Of a stretch of 64,000 nucleotides of DNA, positions 38,365 through 46,402 are shown piece after piece; position 1 is the first letter of the stretch, and every line of letters starts with the position of its first letter. The notes beneath the pieces are model-generated. The model did not search any database. It was given only the letters and a program-made list of their open reading frames with translations, and had not been told where the DNA came from. The stretch lies in the NCBI GenBank assembly GCA_011321815.1, contig DROS01000096.1, forward strand, positions 10,750-74,749, given 5' to 3'. The DNA is from Gammaproteobacteria bacterium. GTDB taxonomy: Bacteria > Pseudomonadota > Gammaproteobacteria > SZUA-152. Position numbers and translations under genes: made by a program.

Positions 38365-38469
38365 GTGTTAATAGTTGTTTTGACAGTCCAACCGGTGTTT
38401 GTTTTTTTATCCAATGCCGCAGGGAAAAACAGGAAAATTTTCCCGATAAACGGATATCAGTGAATTCAC

Positions 38470-40926
38470 TTAACCCTTATACGGCCCGGGCCAGCCTTCC
38501 AGCTCAAAGAGCGGCATGACGGCTCGCTCGGGCTGTTCCAGTTCCAGCGCCAACAATGCAGGACCGAGAGCCCCCCAGTAGAGATTCAAACTGTGTTCAT
38601 CCCAGGCAAAAGATTCGACAGTGGAATTAAAGGCGAAGCGTGCCAGTTGTTGGGCCCGGGCTAACCATACTTGATCGCCGGTGTGACGATAGACATGCAG
38701 CAAGGCAAAGGCACGCCCACTGAGGCCACAGCAAAGACGTGGGTGGCGGTCGGCATGCTCCCAGGCAAACCAAGCCGTCTGGATAGCCAGTTCCAGGTAA
38801 CGGGGACTCTGGATCAGTTCGTGAGCCAGACACCACAAATAAAGATACCCAGCACTGCCACTGCACCAGCCAGGGGCATGAGCAGGTGTCTCATTTTGTT
38901 GCCCCATATGCTGAACAGTACCAACCCATGATATACCTCGCCCGTGGAGAACCGCCTTTTCAGCCAGTTGCTCAAGATGTTTTACAAGCGTAACGGAAGG
39001 GGGTGTTTGCAGCAGTTTGTGCGCCAGTAGTTGAGCATAGAGCATACCGGCCCAACCGTGTGCGATACCCAGATGGGGCGTGGTTTGATCATTGCCGACG
39101 TCACCCAGCCCGGCAATGCGTGTGGCGGTATGCCGGGACGTTTCCCGCAGGAACTGTTCCAATGGTTTGACGGACAAGCGTGACGACCAACGCAATACAT
39201 CCAATAATATTGCAGCGCCTACTATCGGGCCGCTATGGCCGAAGGCAAATTCGTTTTGGCTTTTTCCGGCTTGTGCAGCACTCAGAAACTCTTCCACCTG
39301 TTGCGCGGTTGAGGCCATATCACCTCGTGCGTGACTGATCAAAGCGTGCACGCAGTGCAGACCACACCGCCCATGGTGAAGAGAAACATGACGGTAGTTG
39401 ATCTTTTTGTCGCTTACGGCGGGCAGCTCAAACCCCTGACTATCGTCAATTTGTGCAAGTGCCTGGCGGGACCAGAGGTCGGCACCCACAATCAGTTGCG
39501 GAGAATTGCGTATCTGTGCGGCACGGTAGAGAAACCATGCCAACCCGGCTGCACCAGACTGAATGGACAGCGTTGGTGCGGTAGTGAACAGTTCCGCTAA
39601 TGGGCGTGGAGCATCCACCGTGCGTTCCAGAATTGCATCGACCAGGGACAGCATCTTTGCGGCTGGGCGCACCTCGTCAACCTGATTGCGTTGTGTGGGG
39701 GGCTGTGCACGGCGAAAAGCCTCGCTGAACAGTTTAAGCGAAGGAAAGCGGGCCTGCGCCTTTTTGGCCATAGCGCGCTGTAACACGGATTCTATGTCAG
39801 GCCAGCTTTCAAACCCGTGTCGGGCAAAGGGTAAAGGGGGACTTTCAACCACTTCTTTGTACAGTATCCCCGCCTCGGGTACCCCGGCGATGGGGTAGGC
39901 GCCACAGATCAGATAATATACCAATGCGGCCACAGCATACTGTTCACCCGCGTAGCTTGCGGGTGGCGGCGGTTCTCCGTTCAGTAATGCACTTGCCAAT
40001 TCCGGTTCCATAAACCAGGCTAAACCGGCGCGCCGATTATGATCCGTTGCTGTCCCGCTTGTTAGCAAACGCGATAACCCGAAATCGAGCAATGTAATAT
40101 TGTTGTCGGCATCCACCAACAGGTTTTTGGGATGCACATCGGCATGGATGACACCGTGACCATGAAGTTGTGCGTAGGCATCGAGCAGACGGCAACAAAG
40201 CTGGTGTATCCGGGTGCGCCAGGAGGTTGAGGTGGCGAGACGGTGTTCCCAGAAAGGCAGGTTGATTGGCACGCCGGGACACCAGGAGGTAACCAGAAAA
40301 GGGCGTTCACGATATTGCCCCTGTTCGGCCAATTGCGGACTGCCCACCCCATGCAAATGTGTCAGAATAGCAGCCTCATGTTCCAGTGCCCGCGATACTG
40401 ATGAAGCAGTATCGGGACGTGCGATTTTTAACGCAAACAATTGCCCGTTTTTCCCCTGCACTTGATAGACTTCCACGTCCTGTAGCACTTGAATCAAGCG
40501 GCATACCTCATACCCGGCAAGCATTTGCCCATTGGCAAATGACGCATGAATACTTTCCGTTATGGGCGAATCGGCGGGAACCAGAAACTGGGCATTGGAA
40601 AAACGTATTAACGCAGGGAAGACCTGCGCCAGTGTCTCTTCCGGAACAAGGTTATGTTGACGGCTGTAACGTGCAATGGCTTCGGCAAGGGGGGACGGCG
40701 TGCGAAACGTCTGTAGCAAGATGGCAGTGTCTTTATCGACAATGCGCGAAAAAGAGCGCATGCCGGGGCGTGTAACGGCATAATCGTCATCGTTGCAGTC
40801 GAGCATCGCCCGAACATGTTCCGCCAGTTCCTGAACGGGAAACAACAAGACATCAGGCGGTAAAACATACGGTTTCTGCAAAAGTTTGCGGCGTGCTTCG
40901 TCAATCATTTGTGATCCCGTTTTCAT
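38470..40926 (-). CDS. Ser/Thr protein kinase fused to a LanC-like (lanthionine synthetase C-like) cyclase domain, with an unassigned roughly 135-aa N-terminal domain
   Basis: The kinase motifs are 'FALKIARPD' (catalytic Lys), 'HGVIHADVHPKNLLV' (catalytic loop) and 'LLDFGLSR' (DFG). The C-terminal LanC motifs are 'GAAGLAWFLY', 'GIAHGWAGM' and 'WCSGSAGY…CCGLSGRAF'. Confidence 0.8.
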   Translation of the reverse strand: MKTGSQMIDEARRKLLQKPYVLPPDVLLFPVQELAEHVRAMLDCNDDDYAVTRPGMRSFSRIVDKDTAILLQTFRTPSPLAEAIARYSRQHNLVPEETLAQVFPALIRFSNAQFLVPADSPITESIHASFANGQMLAGYEVCRLIQVLQDVEVYQVQGKNGQLFALKIARPDTASSVSRALEHEAAILTHLHGVGSPQLAEQGQYRERPFLVTSWCPGVPINLPFWEHRLATSTSWRTRIHQLCCRLLDAYAQLHGHGVIHADVHPKNLLVDADNNITLLDFGLSRLLTSGTATDHNRRAGLAWFMEPELASALLNGEPPPPASYAGEQYAVAALVYYLICGAYPIAGVPEAGILYKEVVESPPLPFARHGFESWPDIESVLQRAMAKKAQARFPSLKLFSEAFRRAQPPTQRNQVDEVRPAAKMLSLVDAILERTVDAPRPLAELFTTAPTLSIQSGAAGLAWFLYRAAQIRNSPQLIVGADLWSRQALAQIDDSQGFELPAVSDKKINYRHVSLHHGRCGLHCVHALISHARGDMASTAQQVEEFLSAAQAGKSQNEFAFGHSGPIVGAAILLDVLRWSSRLSVKPLEQFLRETSRHTATRIAGLGDVGNDQTTPHLGIAHGWAGMLYAQLLAHKLLQTPPSVTLVKHLEQLAEKAVLHGRGISWVGTVQHMGQQNETPAHAPGWCSGSAGYLYLWCLAHELIQSPRYLELAIQTAWFAWEHADRHPRLCCGLSGRAFALLHVYRHTGDQVWLARAQQLARFAFNSTVESFAWDEHSLNLYWGALGPALLALELEQPERAVMPLFELEGWPGPYKG

Positions 40927-42097
40927 GCCACAACGCAGTGGTGGGCATCCAGTTTTCTACCTGTACGCCATCCAATGCCAGACGCAACAAGGCGAAATCC
41001 CATGGCGCCGGATGGTCATCACTGTCTGCTATTGTTGATTTGGCGCGTAACAGGCTGCGTGCCAGGTGGTTGGTTATCCATAAACGCCAGCTTTCCACAT
41101 CACGCCAGCCAGGAATCAGCTCGCTGTGCGGAGGGTCTATTCCCCAGGACAACAAACCATCGGTGTCCAGTGCTGCTGTAAATGGTACGCCATGGGATGG
41201 GCAGTCCTGCAATATCTTTTTCAGGTGTTTCGCCACCCGCGCCAGGGTGCGGTAATTTTCAAAATACGCCACCAGTTTGTCGGGCCGTAATATTCCAAAC
41301 AGATCCTGTCCCAGCTTGAATGACGGCACACCCATTTCAACAAAACAGCGCGCAATTTTGGGTAACACCTCGCTCAATACCCCGGGGGTCGGACTAATGT
41401 AGAGTTTGCAAGTCAAAGGTTCACTACGATCAAATGCCCCCTGCTGATGGTGCCATGCCAGCCACCCTGGCACGTTATGAAACACAAAGTGCTCATCAAG
41501 CAAACGATGTACTGCGCCACCAGGCTGAAGCCCCAAATGATTCTGTATCGCACGTTGGTCCGAAAGACGGTGAGCCCATGCAGGTGTTACTGGCATGCGG
41601 TGATAGCGATAGAGCCAGCGTGATAACGCCTTAGGGTCATCTATGGGAAGAGTCTGAGCCGCCTGCAAGGCGGCGTGTGAACAGGTTGTCAAAACATCGG
41701 CAGGTTCAGGAATGTTGGGTGTGGCGGCGAGAAGTGCTTTGCAGGCTGCCGGACCACTGAAAAAACGGCCCTCTTCTTCGATTTCCAGAATACCGTCCAG
41801 CACCATGCCCGCAATCCCTGCCTTATTCTGCAGGATGTCTGCGGGTAACGTCGCAGGCTGTCCGAGGCGTTGCAATAACGCAGCACTATTATTATCAACC
41901 GCCAGAATACCCAACGCGGGCTCCTGGTGTGGGACTAACACACCGTACTGACCGGCATCCGCAGCGAGTTCACGAAAGGGGGCCGCAGACACTGGAGGCA
42001 GCTGTTCATAGCCAACTAACCGGAATGCCGGGCTGGCGCGAAACAGGCGGCCTTCCAGGGGTTGAAGCTGAAGCCAGCTATGTTCGCCTGTTAACAT
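40901..42097 (-). CDS. Hypothetical 398-aa protein, middle gene of the kinase-LanC operon
   Basis: This ORF is translationally coupled on both sides: it overlaps the downstream kinase-LanC gene by 26 nt and the upstream 168-aa gene by 7 nt. I can assign no motif by eye. Confidence 0.5.
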   Translation of the reverse strand: MLTGEHSWLQLQPLEGRLFRASPAFRLVGYEQLPPVSAAPFRELAADAGQYGVLVPHQEPALGILAVDNNSAALLQRLGQPATLPADILQNKAGIAGMVLDGILEIEEEGRFFSGPAACKALLAATPNIPEPADVLTTCSHAALQAAQTLPIDDPKALSRWLYRYHRMPVTPAWAHRLSDQRAIQNHLGLQPGGAVHRLLDEHFVFHNVPGWLAWHHQQGAFDRSEPLTCKLYISPTPGVLSEVLPKIARCFVEMGVPSFKLGQDLFGILRPDKLVAYFENYRTLARVAKHLKKILQDCPSHGVPFTAALDTDGLLSWGIDPPHSELIPGWRDVESWRLWITNHLARSLLRAKSTIADSDDHPAPWDFALLRLALDGVQVENWMPTTALWHENGITND

Positions 42098-42597
42098 TCA
42101 CCTTTGGAGGAACGCAATTCTTCCAGTGCCCCTTCAAACATGGGTATCAGTTCCTGTGCATCTGTCTTTGCACGGCGTGCGGCAACCGCTTCGACGCCTT
42201 CAATTCTCGCCACGGCTTCGTTGAGCAGGCCTTTGACATATACAAGGTCATCCAATTGAAAGCCGCCTATGCTGGAGGCAAAGGGAGAAATGTTTTCGTT
42301 AGCCTCACAGGTCGCCATATCCTGGGAACAAAGTGCCAGCAATCCGCCGCCGACTGCCGCGCGCCCGATGTCTGTTGCCACGCGCTCAAGCTGGGCCGGT
42401 TCAAGACGGTTGATCTCTCCTTTATAACTATCCAGAAATTGCAGTTTATAAACATCCCGTGCCACGGCAATCACTGGTGTAAGCGGTGTGGGAAACTCCG
42501 AGGTGTCTGAATCAGGTCCTGGATAAGCGACACTTCCTCCACCCGTTTTGAGTGGCATAAGATTGACCATTAAATCTTTCACTTTATATGTACGCAT
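42091..42597 (-). CDS. Hypothetical 168-aa protein, first gene of the kinase-LanC operon (candidate substrate or accessory protein)
   Basis: It has a good Shine-Dalgarno sequence (GGAGAAAAGCC-ATG). A Ser/Thr/Pro-rich patch 'PGPDSDTSEFPTPLTP' is present and the C-terminus ends '…LRSSKGEC'. Confidence 0.45.
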   Translation of the reverse strand: MRTYKVKDLMVNLMPLKTGGGSVAYPGPDSDTSEFPTPLTPVIAVARDVYKLQFLDSYKGEINRLEPAQLERVATDIGRAAVGGGLLALCSQDMATCEANENISPFASSIGGFQLDDLVYVKGLLNEAVARIEGVEAVAARRAKTDAQELIPMFEGALEELRSSKGEC

Positions 42598-43342: not shown

Positions 43343-46300
43343 ATGCCATGGATTAAGCCCGTTTTCCCTTCCACTATATGCTGTCCCCGTCGTTTTGTAT
43401 CGGCGTTTTTCTTTTTCGCGGTGTTACTGATTTCAAACCATGCCTTCGCTGTAATTGGTGCGGCGCCAAACACCACCATTCAGAATCTCCCCGCCAACAC
43501 CTGGTACGAGGTTCCGAACAGCGAGATGCGTCAAGTGGAAGCCAAGGGCGCGGATTATCCCGGCATCTGGGGTAACCACCCGGATGATCCCACGCCAAGG
43601 AAGAGCAACTTTCCAAGTGGTCAGGGGGTTTTTCTGTGGAGTGGTGCAGTGTTTGACGACTATCGCAATCGCCTGGTGTTATGGGGTGGTGGGCACAACT
43701 CATACTACGGTAACGAGCTTTATGCCTTTGATCTCACCTCCTTAAACTGGGAACGGGTTACCAACCCCTCGCCGCCCACTTATGATGATATTTGTGTTGC
43801 TGTTTTGTCTGATGGCAACCCCAATAGCCGCCACACTTATTACAATCTGGCCTATATCCCCACCACAGACAAATTTTTTTCCACGCCGGCAGGGACCACA
43901 TCCTGCGAGGCTTCCGGATTGGATTTCAACACCTGGAGCTTTGATTTCGATAGTAAAGACTGGCTCAATCTTGCCCCCGCCACCGAACTTAACGGTAACG
44001 GCAAGGCAGTACAGCCCCCGGGTTGGGCGCCTACGGCGGCGGCTTACAATCCACTGGATAACAAGGTGTACTCTGTTGGCCCCGAGGGGCTGTTTGCCTA
44101 CGATGTGGTTGCCAATCGTTGGGATAAACTGAATTCCTCCGGATTGGGGGGAGACCGCGGTGTGGTGGTGGACGAGAAGCGTGAGCTGCTAGTCGTGGTG
44201 GGGCGTGGTGAGGTGGTGGTCTACGATTTGGCCAATCAGAATTATACCCCCCAATTCTGGGATACCGTGGGTGATGAGGACTATAACCTTAATAATAATT
44301 TCCGCCCGGGTGTGAATTACGATCCGGTGGCGGACCGCATCGTAGTGTGGGATGGGGGAGCCGTGCGTGCGCTCAATATGGATACCCGTCGCTGGGATGA
44401 TCTTGCGGTGGCGCCCCAGGTGCGCCATTTTACGGGCACTTACGGTCGCTTTCGCTATAGCCGACGGGAAAACGCCTATGTGTTGGTCAATGATGCGACA
44501 GAGAATGTACTGATCTACAAGCTGGCAGACCCTGCTGCCTTGCGGGTGGTTCTGGACCCTGTTGATATTGCCGTGGATCAGGGGCAAACCGCAACATTCA
44601 GTGTGTTCGCAATTGGTGATAGTGAGCTTAGCTATCAGTGGCGCAAAAACGGAGGAGTCATTGACGGTGCCACACAGGCAAGTTACACACTCACGGCCTC
44701 CGATATGGCTGACAATGATGCGGAGTTTGATGTCGAAATCACCAATAATGGCAGCAGCCTGATCAGCGCTTCCGCCAGGCTTACGATTGTTCAGGACATT
44801 GATGCCCCGACAGTGGTTTCTGTACTGCCCCTTGGGGCTGACACTGTCCAGGTGGTGTTCAGCGAGCCGGTGGAAACAGCGTCGGCACAAAATGCCAGTC
44901 GTTACAGCCTCGCGCCTTCCGTCACAGTCAATAGTGCTGTGCTGGCGGCCAACACTCGGGTGGTGTTGCTTGATGTCAGTGGCCTCAGTGAGGGCACTGA
45001 ATACACCCTGATCATTGACGACGGTATCAGCGACCGCGCTATTGTGCCCAACGTCATGACAGAAATGACCAATGTCAATTTTGTCTATCGCGCCAATGAA
45101 GGGTTCGAGGGTGGTGATGCCGCAGGTTTTGAGCCCCAAACGCCATCGCGCTGGACGGTGGTACAGGACGGTGGTGATTACGCCTACAGTCTTAATACTT
45201 CAAATTTTGACAGCCCTGGCAATGGCTTGTTGGGTGAATACAGTCTGTTGCCGGGGATCTATGGTGACGTGGTGTTTAGCGTTAATGCCCGGCTGGGTGA
45301 CGAGGTGGCCAGTAATAATTTCGCTGATATGGCGCTGTTGTTTGGTTATCAGGACGCCAATAACTATTACTATCTGCTTCTTAATAATGCAATGTCTGCC
45401 ACGCAATTGTTCAAAGTGGAATCGGGTCGCCGTAGCGAACTGGCCACGGCCACGACGGACTGGTTGAATGACAACCTTTATCACGCCATTGACATTGTGC
45501 GTAGTGGTGATCAAATCCGGGTCACTTTTGATGGCAACATGCTGCTGAGCGCCACGGATGCCACGTTTGCGATGGGTCGTCTGGGCGTTGGCAGCTTCAA
45601 TGATTCCGCCTTTTTTGATGACGTTCGCGTACGTGCGGTACCTGCTGGTGGTGCCACCAATAGCGCGCCCACGGCTGCCAGTGCCAGTATTACAACCAAT
45701 GAAAACACACCGAGCGGAGGTGTATCCGCGCAGGTAACAGACCCGGATGATGGCGCTGATCATGTTATCAGCATTGTTTTACAGCCTTCGAACGGTACTG
45801 CACAGGTGATTAACAACAAGCTGGTTTACACGCCAGGCACAGGATTTGTCGGCAATGACAGCTTCCAGTTCAGCGCCACGGACTCGGGCGGGCTGTCTGT
45901 CACCGGTATTGCCAGCGTTACGGTGTTGGCCGCGGGGGGTGGAAACAATGCACCCACCGCCGCCAGTGCCAGCATCACTACCTACGAAGATACATCGAGC
46001 GAAGGTGTGTCCGCGCAGGTAACAGACCCGGATGATGGCGCCGATCATGTTATCAGCATTGTTTTACAGCCTTCGAACGGCACTGCACAGGTGATTAACA
46101 ACAAGCTGGTTTACACGCCAGATAGCGGTTTTGTCGGTGATGACAACTTCCAGTTCAGTGCCACGGATTCGGGCGGGCTGTCTGTCACCGGTACCGCCAG
46201 CGTCACAGTGTTGGCAGAAGAGCCGTCTGACAATGGCGGCAGTTCCACGGTGGGTGGTGGCAGCGGTGGTGGCGGTGGCAGTTTTGGCGTATTGCTGCTA

Positions 46301-46402
46301 TTGGCCCTGTTGTTCATGAAATACAGTTTTGTCTTTCTTTCTGTTCCGGCACATCGTCAAAATAATCTTGATGCTGTACTGAGGGTTGATCAGTTGTCCT
46401 GA
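43343..46402 (+). CDS. Large secreted multi-domain surface protein (Kelch/beta-propeller-like region, Ig-like domains, concanavalin/LamG-like domain, two tandem cadherin/VCBS-like repeats, Gly-rich linker and a C-terminal hydrophobic anchor)
   Basis: The 1019-aa product has a signal peptide (…FFFAVLLISNHAFAV) and an Ig-like segment '…FSVFAIGDSELSYQWRKNGGVIDGATQASYTLTASD…'. Two 95-aa repeats are present. The C-terminus is 'GGGSGGGGGSFGVLLLLALLFMKY…'. Confidence 0.75.
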   Translation: MPWIKPVFPSTICCPRRFVSAFFFFAVLLISNHAFAVIGAAPNTTIQNLPANTWYEVPNSEMRQVEAKGADYPGIWGNHPDDPTPRKSNFPSGQGVFLWSGAVFDDYRNRLVLWGGGHNSYYGNELYAFDLTSLNWERVTNPSPPTYDDICVAVLSDGNPNSRHTYYNLAYIPTTDKFFSTPAGTTSCEASGLDFNTWSFDFDSKDWLNLAPATELNGNGKAVQPPGWAPTAAAYNPLDNKVYSVGPEGLFAYDVVANRWDKLNSSGLGGDRGVVVDEKRELLVVVGRGEVVVYDLANQNYTPQFWDTVGDEDYNLNNNFRPGVNYDPVADRIVVWDGGAVRALNMDTRRWDDLAVAPQVRHFTGTYGRFRYSRRENAYVLVNDATENVLIYKLADPAALRVVLDPVDIAVDQGQTATFSVFAIGDSELSYQWRKNGGVIDGATQASYTLTASDMADNDAEFDVEITNNGSSLISASARLTIVQDIDAPTVVSVLPLGADTVQVVFSEPVETASAQNASRYSLAPSVTVNSAVLAANTRVVLLDVSGLSEGTEYTLIIDDGISDRAIVPNVMTEMTNVNFVYRANEGFEGGDAAGFEPQTPSRWTVVQDGGDYAYSLNTSNFDSPGNGLLGEYSLLPGIYGDVVFSVNARLGDEVASNNFADMALLFGYQDANNYYYLLLNNAMSATQLFKVESGRRSELATATTDWLNDNLYHAIDIVRSGDQIRVTFDGNMLLSATDATFAMGRLGVGSFNDSAFFDDVRVRAVPAGGATNSAPTAASASITTNENTPSGGVSAQVTDPDDGADHVISIVLQPSNGTAQVINNKLVYTPGTGFVGNDSFQFSATDSGGLSVTGIASVTVLAAGGGNNAPTAASASITTYEDTSSEGVSAQVTDPDDGADHVISIVLQPSNGTAQVINNKLVYTPDSGFVGDDNFQFSATDSGGLSVTGTASVTVLAEEPSDNGGSSTVGGGSGGGGGSFGVLLLLALLFMKYSFVFLSVPAHRQNNLDAVLRVDQLS
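45656..46225 (+). repeat. Two tandem 285-bp near-identical repeats inside the surface-protein gene
   Basis: The anchor 'gccagtgccag' occurs at 45677 and at 45962 (period 285 bp). The encoded repeats '…APTAASASITT…VSAQVTDPDDGADHVISIVLQPSNGTAQVINNKLVYTP…FQFSATDSGGLSVTG…' are more than 90% identical. Confidence 0.8.

Follow-up and report, generated by a model that had tools for sequence, protein, structure and literature searches.

What does a small group of minus-strand genes do inside an exopolysaccharide (EPS) island that is otherwise read from the plus strand? The question is raised by a 64,000-nucleotide stretch of a gammaproteobacterial metagenome-assembled genome (GenBank assembly GCA_011321815.1, contig DROS01000096.1, positions 10,750 to 74,749), referred to below as the window. 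Its three adjacent genes, named here S, H and KC, are all annotated as "hypothetical protein" (HHI94745-47). An earlier reading of the DNA letters (the sequence-only reading) had described a kinase-LanC fusion with two mid-sized partners. It had proposed a non-canonical, possibly protein-directed system for dehydration and thioether formation, perhaps serving a surface structure made by the island. Our comparisons of sequences and predicted structures indicate that the triad is probably a leader-guided lanthionine-installing system of the type that makes peptides that are ribosomally synthesized and modified post-translationally (RiPPs), with a synthetase split over two proteins, H and KC.

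The three genes follow one another closely on the minus strand. S (168 aa, 42091..42597 (-)) is a precursor-like candidate substrate, H (398 aa, 40901..42097 (-)) is by its fold a stand-alone HopA1/LanY-like phospho-Ser/Thr lyase, and KC (818 aa, 38470..40926 (-)) is a fusion of a RiPP recognition element (RRE), a kinase and LanC. The overlap between S and H is 7 nt (ATGTTAA), that between H and KC 26 nt when KC starts at Met1. The tight coupling and the exact positions of these open reading frames (ORFs) were thus confirmed as first described. The start of KC is ambiguous (40909-40926 (-)), as initiation at Met7 gives a protein of 812 aa and an 8-nt overlap with H, and public annotations use both forms. 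A strong Shine-Dalgarno sequence, AAGGAG, precedes the S gene at 42610-42605. A consensus scan weakly suggests a terminator-like hairpin with a T-run at 38430..38445 (-), 25 nt past the KC stop codon, and a promoter scan returned three sites against 4.2 expected, which is not above chance. Because all three have many homologues, S, H and KC are judged from sequence comparison to be real genes and not chance ORFs.

The identity of KC gives the first part of the answer. Its Ser/Thr protein kinase domain covers residues ~139-420 (39667..40512 (-)). The Pfam Pkinase match lies within it at residues 153-361 (E 2e-17), and Pkinase scores 63.8 bits versus 35.4 for APH. The catalytic motifs of a kinase are present as K167, E184, H261-x-D263-x-H265-x-x-N268 and D281-F-G. 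None of K167, E184, H261, D263, H265, N268 and D281 varies among the 71 aligned members of the family, and the other two DFG residues hardly do (F282 in 62/71, G283 in 70/71). The LanC cyclase domain (residues 453-808, 38503..39570 (-)) is full-length, with Pfam LANC_like aligned over profile positions 5-349 of 350 (E 9e-30). It carries H623 and the zinc ligands C688, C732 and C733, kept in 70, 69 and, for the Cys pair, 67 of the 71 members, the remainder being nearly all gaps. The third zinc ligand is a Cys, which gives the motif CCG instead of CHG; CCG occurs in the substrate-promiscuous LanM enzymes of the ProcM/SyncM type (PMC10027976).

The best NCBIfam model for KC is LanL (NF038150), with 164.5 bits against a cut-off of 650, followed by LanKC (NF038151), with 98.5 bits against 575. 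The LanL alignment spans only model positions 191-807 and leaves the lyase part uncovered. KC is therefore, as read from its sequence, a Ser/Thr kinase joined to a full LanC and lacking the lyase domain of classes III and IV. Both the fusion and the absence of an in-chain lyase had been recognized in the sequence-only reading, and both hold, the N-terminal ~135 residues being unrelated to a lyase.

The lyase that KC lacks appears to be supplied by its neighbour. The AlphaFold2 model of H is confident (predicted local distance difference test score, pLDDT, 88.6; predicted template modelling score, pTM, 0.88), and all Foldseek matches of this model are phospho-Ser/Thr lyases. The best are HopA1 (4RSX, E 1e-7) and LxmY from the lexapeptide LxmKY dehydratase complex (9DK3_B, E 1e-6), with the class III lyase domains of ThurKC, CuvL, SalKC and PneKC and the effectors OspF, SpvC and VirA among the others. 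The residues invariant in the H family are K231, Y233, K261, R271 and Y278, and K231, K261, R271 and Y278 stand 30, 10 and 7 residues apart. In CaoY, R187, K219, R229 and Y236 are spaced by 32, 10 and 7, and in SpvC, where the corresponding set is K104, H106, K136, R148 and Y158, the spacing of K104, K136, R148 and Y158 is 32, 12 and 10 (PMC9486802). The K-10-R-7-Y spacing of H equals that of CaoY K219/R229/Y236, and the H residues would parallel those of SpvC, in a mapping made by spacing and not by superposition. H has a Lys (K231) at the SpvC-K104 position, at which CaoY has Arg187.

Relatives of H point in the same direction. A 46%-identical homologue (P0006) scores above the Pfam gathering threshold for HopA1 at residues 225-318, and among 27 relatives 5 match HopA1 and 3 match RamC_N. 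On the evidence of the predicted fold, H is a phospho-Ser/Thr lyase of the HopA1/LanY/OspF fold that provides what KC lacks. The sequence-only reading was therefore right that the system is non-canonical, but the lyase it took to be missing is present in the 398-aa protein. The family is large, with more than 350 matches in a set of 5.8 billion proteins and, at 50% identity, 1,583 representatives at E<=1e-3, of which 1,118 reach E<=1e-30. Nearly all of the best 150 representatives are 350-430 aa long (longest 507), and no lyase-kinase fusion is found among them.

H and KC also travel together. Relatives of H were sought in a collection of 185,579 species with one genome per species; 328 stretches were found, and the best 80 were examined. 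These 80 loci come from Acidobacteriota, Chloroflexota, Gemmatimonadota, Armatimonadota, Eremiobacterota, Planctomycetota, Myxococcota, Nitrospirota, Rhodocyclaceae, Cyanobacteria and Bacillus. In about 78 of them, H is directly followed on its own strand by a KC homologue of ~800 aa. Loci that seem to lack it stop at the end of a contig, apart from one in Crocosphaera. Clustering of the neighbouring ORFs showed that the conserved elements are only H, KC (clustered together with further proteins that have a kinase domain), S and antisense shadow ORFs. The conservation of the gene neighbourhood, which had been suggested as a check on the sequence-only reading, is thus borne out for H and KC, and it extends to S as described below. 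In about 25 loci of Acidobacteriota/Thermoanaerobaculia, big extra Ser/Thr kinases (870-1200 aa; Pkinase with PD40/WD40 beta-propellers) stand beside the triad, on one side of it or on both (e.g., L010:2092-5571 and L002:2650-5259); they are not universal and do not occur in the window.

The N-terminus of KC suggests how a substrate might be selected. The predicted fold of residues 1-135 (40522..40926 (-)) has the winged helix and three-stranded sheet of known RREs, and its structural matches are TbiB1 with leader (value 9.8), TfuB1 with leader (9.3), PqqD (9.2), MccB (8.6), MibB (8.3), TglHI chain C, described as "RiPP Recognition protein" (8.2), NisB (7.9), the PbtF RRE (7.5) and LynD (6.9). 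Foldseek returns the same set of RREs with weaker statistics. By this structural comparison, the domain is a PqqD-like RRE. Compared with other PqqD-like RREs (TbiB1, TfuB1, NisB/MibB, LynD, TglI), that of KC differs in being fused to a Pkinase-LanC protein. No report of such a fusion was found in the openly searchable literature, in which class III and IV enzymes are described without an RRE. H, too, has an extra N-terminal domain (residues 1-125, 41723..42097 (-)) that is possibly, on weak evidence, RRE-like. Its secondary structure, beta-beta-alpha-beta-beta-alpha-alpha-alpha, has the same order as that of the KC N-domain, and hhalign aligns the latter co-linearly but weakly with H residues 18-90 (E 6e-4, probability 29%). 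H and KC may therefore both carry the same leader-binding module.

The third protein has the features expected of a partner for such a module. In S, a leader-like motif (MRTYKVKDLMVNLMP) at the N-terminus is followed by a central region and then by a helical tail (EGALEELRSSKGEC) at the C-terminus. The motif occupies residues 1-16 (42550..42597 (-)), as defined by an alignment of the sub-family and a motif hidden Markov model (HMM), and it would be the part that docks on the RRE. Across all eight members of the sub-family, V6, K7, D8, L9, M10, N12 and Pro105 are invariant. The central region holds Cys90 and Cys97 together with Ser/Thr at 91, 96 and 104, and residues 90-105 (CSQDMATCEANENISP, 42283..42330 (-)), which contain the only internal Cys residues of S together with conserved Ser/Thr, form a candidate modification patch. 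The five closest relatives keep this patch as L-C-[ST]-x-D-M-x-T-C ... I-S-P, that is, with Cys90, Thr96 and Cys97.

The family of S is easily overlooked. A sequence search with S alone gave a handful of relatives, and phmmer against the 80 loci gave a single match. The family was exposed by reading the ORFs upstream of H and by building an HMM of the N-terminal motif (M-x-F-x-V-K-D-L-M-V/I-x-V; in the window, S begins MRTYKVKDLMVNL). At least 59 of 84 sequences contain a match to this HMM, only on the strand of H and nearly always directly upstream of the H gene. The 59 members range from 58 to 469 aa (median 144) and contain 2-59 Cys (median 9, ~6%) and ~13% Ser plus Thr. Behind the motif lies a central segment, variable in most cases and rich in Cys, Ser and Thr, which is often built of repeats (e.g., CTPSPP, CxxCT and CYASGGG); it is followed by an amphipathic helix of the form L-x-x-L-K-x-Q-L ... 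P-Q-T-x-x-E-V-x-x-L-E-x-K-L-x-x-A-L-x-E-L. In some loci (L001, L009, L068), tandem S-type genes with different cores lie upstream of H, as in multi-precursor RiPP clusters. The partners are indeed mid-sized and not short precursors, as had been noted from the letters; as to the proposal of a protein-directed system, the leader-like motif of S and the RRE of KC point instead to leader-guided RiPP logic acting on a dedicated substrate and not on proteins in general.

The comparisons show what the domains are, that their catalytic residues are conserved and that the three genes are linked; from this we infer the substrate role of S, the binding of its N-motif by the RRE and the chemistry that would follow. 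The F/Y-x-V-K-D-L-M-V motif at the N-terminus of S would dock as a strand on the PqqD-like RRE of KC, with which the conserved motif is consistent, and possibly also on the related N-domain of H. The KC kinase, judging by its intact and invariant catalytic motifs, would then phosphorylate Ser/Thr in the core of S. H would beta-eliminate the phosphate to give dehydroalanine or dehydrobutyrine, with K261 as the presumed base and K231, R271 and Y278 assisting, as its fold and residue spacing suggest. Finally, the LanC domain with its three-Cys zinc site would add Cys thiols to the dehydro residues and so form (methyl)lanthionine rings. In the lineage of the window, with its two internal Cys, the product would be expected to have one ring or two, or else dehydro residues for the most part. 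The product may remain a protein-sized molecule, because no protease or exporter is conserved beside the triad and the C-terminal helix is conserved.

Several points speak against this proposal. Dehydration and thioether formation are read from homology, and the lyase identity of H is drawn from comparison of a predicted fold. The H of the window has no Pfam match at E<=1, and the H family profile run against PDB sequences found no solved lyase, only chance-level matches. More broadly, neither H nor S has a Pfam, NCBIfam or PADLOC match; of the profile checks suggested by the sequence-only reading, those on Pkinase and LANC_like succeeded for KC and the lyase of H was seen by fold. S168, the S of the window, has only three Cys in total (Cys90, Cys97 and Cys168 at the very C-terminus), and its sequence is fairly conserved; this lineage may therefore form few rings or none, or S may have another role. 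One locus from Crocosphaera (L067) has H and S without a KC within 6 kb. The absence of a conserved protease or exporter in the neighbour clustering is also unusual for a secreted lanthipeptide. At the same Crocosphaera locus (Crocosphaera sp. XPORK-15E, L067:2475-10491), a trypsin-like peptidase-TPR protein is encoded downstream of H and an ABC transporter upstream, and these are possible maturation and export genes.

Some of these points are equally at home in the main rival explanation, a module for regulation or repair at the protein level. By analogy with OspF-type lyases and eukaryotic LanCL, the kinase and the lyase would turn Ser/Thr of a target protein into dehydro residues, to which LanC would attach a small thiol (glutathione, for example) as a cap. 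In this scheme, S would act either as a regulator or as the one dedicated target. Published trees that place LanCL with LanC domains linked to kinases (PMC7268733) are in keeping with this, as are the missing exporter and protease and an S168 that is Cys-poor and conserved like a folded protein in its own lineage. The wider family is not. Most relatives of S have variable cores with many Cys near Ser/Thr, including CTPSPP repeats and up to 59 Cys, which fits intramolecular rings, and an RRE together with a conserved leader motif is a hallmark of substrate recognition in RiPP pathways. For these reasons, regulation or repair is considered an unlikely explanation.

If the triad is a leader-guided lanthionine system, it has to be placed among the known synthetases, of which reviews up to August 2026 recognize six classes (PMC13509491). 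Class IV LanL enzymes (e.g., VenL) resemble it in fusing a Pkinase-type kinase with intact residues to a zinc-ligand LanC and in phosphorylating before eliminating. They differ in that KC has an RRE at its N-terminus in place of an OspF-like lyase domain, that the lyase is a separate HopA1-type protein, that the zinc motif is CCG and not CHG, that KC falls far below the LanL cut-off and that the precursors, at 58-469 aa, are long and carry a C-terminal helix. The class V LanK-LanY pairs (LxmKY, CaoKY) and the thioamitide pairs TvaCD/ThoCD share with the triad a free HopA1-like lyase and a kinase on a separate polypeptide; LxmK and LxmY co-purify, and so do CaoK and CaoY. However, the class V kinase is a stand-alone protein of the APH type (PF01636) with no canonical LanC, whereas that of the triad is of the Pkinase type and fused to a full zinc LanC; in addition, H has K231 where CaoY has Arg187, and carries an extra N-terminal domain of ~125 aa.

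The remaining classes are further away. Class III LanKC enzymes (ThurKC, CurKC) carry out the same three chemistries, and the lyase domains of ThurKC, CuvL, SalKC and PneKC match the fold of H. Yet in class III all three domains lie in one chain and the cyclase has no zinc ligands, unlike KC, which has them and scores below the LanKC cut-off; leader recognition is ascribed to a subdomain of the kinase and not to an RRE (PMC9828337). The class II LanM enzymes of the ProcM/SyncM type share the CCG three-Cys zinc site and the habit of placing many diverse cores behind a conserved leader (PMC10027976), but their dehydratase is unrelated (lipid-kinase-like) and their precursors combine long Nif11/NHLP leaders with short cores. 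Class VI, based on a Streptococcus enzyme with a kinase, a truncated lyase and a truncated cyclase (PMC10676316), was rejected for KC, whose LanC is full-length and whose N-terminus is an RRE and not the remnant of a lyase. By their defining features, as seen in sequences and models, the triad lies outside classes III, IV, V and VI. It would work like a hybrid of IV and V, in which a class IV-type Pkinase and zinc LanC and a class V-type free lyase are combined with a ProcM-like CCG site and an RRE like that of class I dehydratases and of numerous further RiPP enzymes.

The closeness to classes III and IV nevertheless raises another alternative, namely that this is an ordinary cluster in which the 818-aa protein acts as a LanL or LanKC on a short, unannotated precursor nearby, and the 168- and 398-aa genes are bystanders. 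LanL and LanKC are, after all, the first and second NCBIfam matches of KC, and surveys that class any protein with Pkinase and LANC_like as class III/IV would place KC there (PMC7268733). Both scores are far under the cut-offs, however, and the lyase part of LanL is unaligned, with an RRE standing at the N-terminus. A 398-aa gene that has a lyase fold and is tied to KC in about 78 of 80 loci is hardly a bystander. Moreover, a search of the six-frame translation of the window with the leader motif found no second, short precursor, and S168 was the sole credible match; the one other match lies within a long ORF, 464 residues short of its end, and is clearly no precursor. An ordinary class III or IV cluster is thus very unlikely, and the expectation that the triad would not turn out to be a well-characterised cluster with a conventional short precursor was upheld.

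The leader-guided system appears to be a real, widespread and apparently uncharacterised variant of the lanthipeptide type with unusually long substrates. No description of this architecture was found in the openly searchable literature, and neither H nor S is covered by a model in NCBIfam (June 2026). The large survey mentioned above binned any Pkinase plus LANC_like protein as class III/IV and discarded candidate precursors longer than 120 aa (PMC7268733), which would explain why the family went unnoticed. If confirmed, the triad would represent a distinct synthetase architecture beyond the six classes, joining a kinase-LanC of class IV type and a free lyase of class V type to an RRE, a domain not known to be used by either class. 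The system is common, and many of its carriers belong to hard-to-culture soil phyla (Acidobacteriota, Chloroflexota, Gemmatimonadota). Cultured carriers include Bacillus pfraonensis 70b and Bacillus sp. Xin1, and a KC homologue is present in Streptomyces sp. NPDC050988 and Nonomuraea wenchangensis. The ProcM-type CCG motif and the variable cores of S fit together, and these Cys/Thr-rich cores and the motif suggest a naturally promiscuous cyclase that could help engineering. A bolder possibility, which we regard as doubtful, is that the S proteins are left untrimmed as full-length, heavily thioether-cross-linked "lanthi-proteins" (as long as ~470 aa and bearing dozens of rings), which would assemble by way of the conserved C-terminal coiled coil, and that the enzymes form a seventh, phylum-spanning class of lanthionine synthetases hidden among "class IV" calls and "hypothetical proteins".

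It remains to ask whether the surroundings of the triad have a bearing on its function. The plus-strand flanks are a genuine XrtA/PEP-CTERM EPS locus, as had been recognized from the letters, with TIGR03016, TIGR03006, TIGR03019, TIGR03087, TIGR03109 (XrtA) and EpsI, TIGR03088 and TIGR03108 above their cut-offs. The idea that the triad modifies a protein or surface structure of this locus draws on its position, with the FemAB-family gene (TIGR03019) on one side and the remainder of the XrtA locus on the other, and on the same EPS arrangement in locus L081, where the lyase is 96% identical. This link, also suggested in the sequence-only reading, found no support on wider comparison. Homologues of 12 EPS-locus genes of the window occur in none of the 80 related loci (within about +/-6 kb), and a 47%-identical triad (171, 399 and 815 aa) in L082 and L083 sits elsewhere, beside TIR and radical-SAM genes. 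S168 has, on reading its sequence, neither a PEP-CTERM tail nor a signal peptide, and the triad runs on the opposite strand and is slightly richer in GC (0.53-0.56 at window positions 39000-42000 versus roughly 0.47-0.52 in the neighbouring upstream EPS genes), which is consistent with later insertion of a cassette. A role in the EPS locus is accordingly very improbable. Because none of the 80 loci carries EPS/XrtA genes, the triad is interpreted as a self-contained cassette whose EPS setting is incidental, with no functional tie evident.

An anti-phage defence kinase system is likewise very improbable, in that the matches of the KC kinase domain to the PADLOC PD-T4-6, mad6 and MkoA kinase models cover only a generic kinase domain, H and S have no such match, and no defence gene is conserved beside the triad despite the TIR_2 gene that adjoins it in L082 and L083, while modification of a peptide is what the presence of LanC, RRE and lyase domains suggests. 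The small TIR_2 protein itself (L082:2426-2725) is perhaps a defence gene near the 47%-identical triad. In the same locus, a radical SAM/SPASM enzyme (L082:7300-8397) has an adjacent ORF of 107 aa, an arrangement repeated in L083, and the two may form a second RiPP-like pair. In the window, a gene transcribed divergently from the triad (43343-46402 (+)) encodes a protein of 1019 aa that contains Kelch-like, Big_5 and tandem-95 repeats. At its end, a Gly-rich stretch is followed by a hydrophobic tail (GGGSFGVLLLLALLFMK...); this end lacks a clear PEP motif and might be a variant exosortase-sorting signal.

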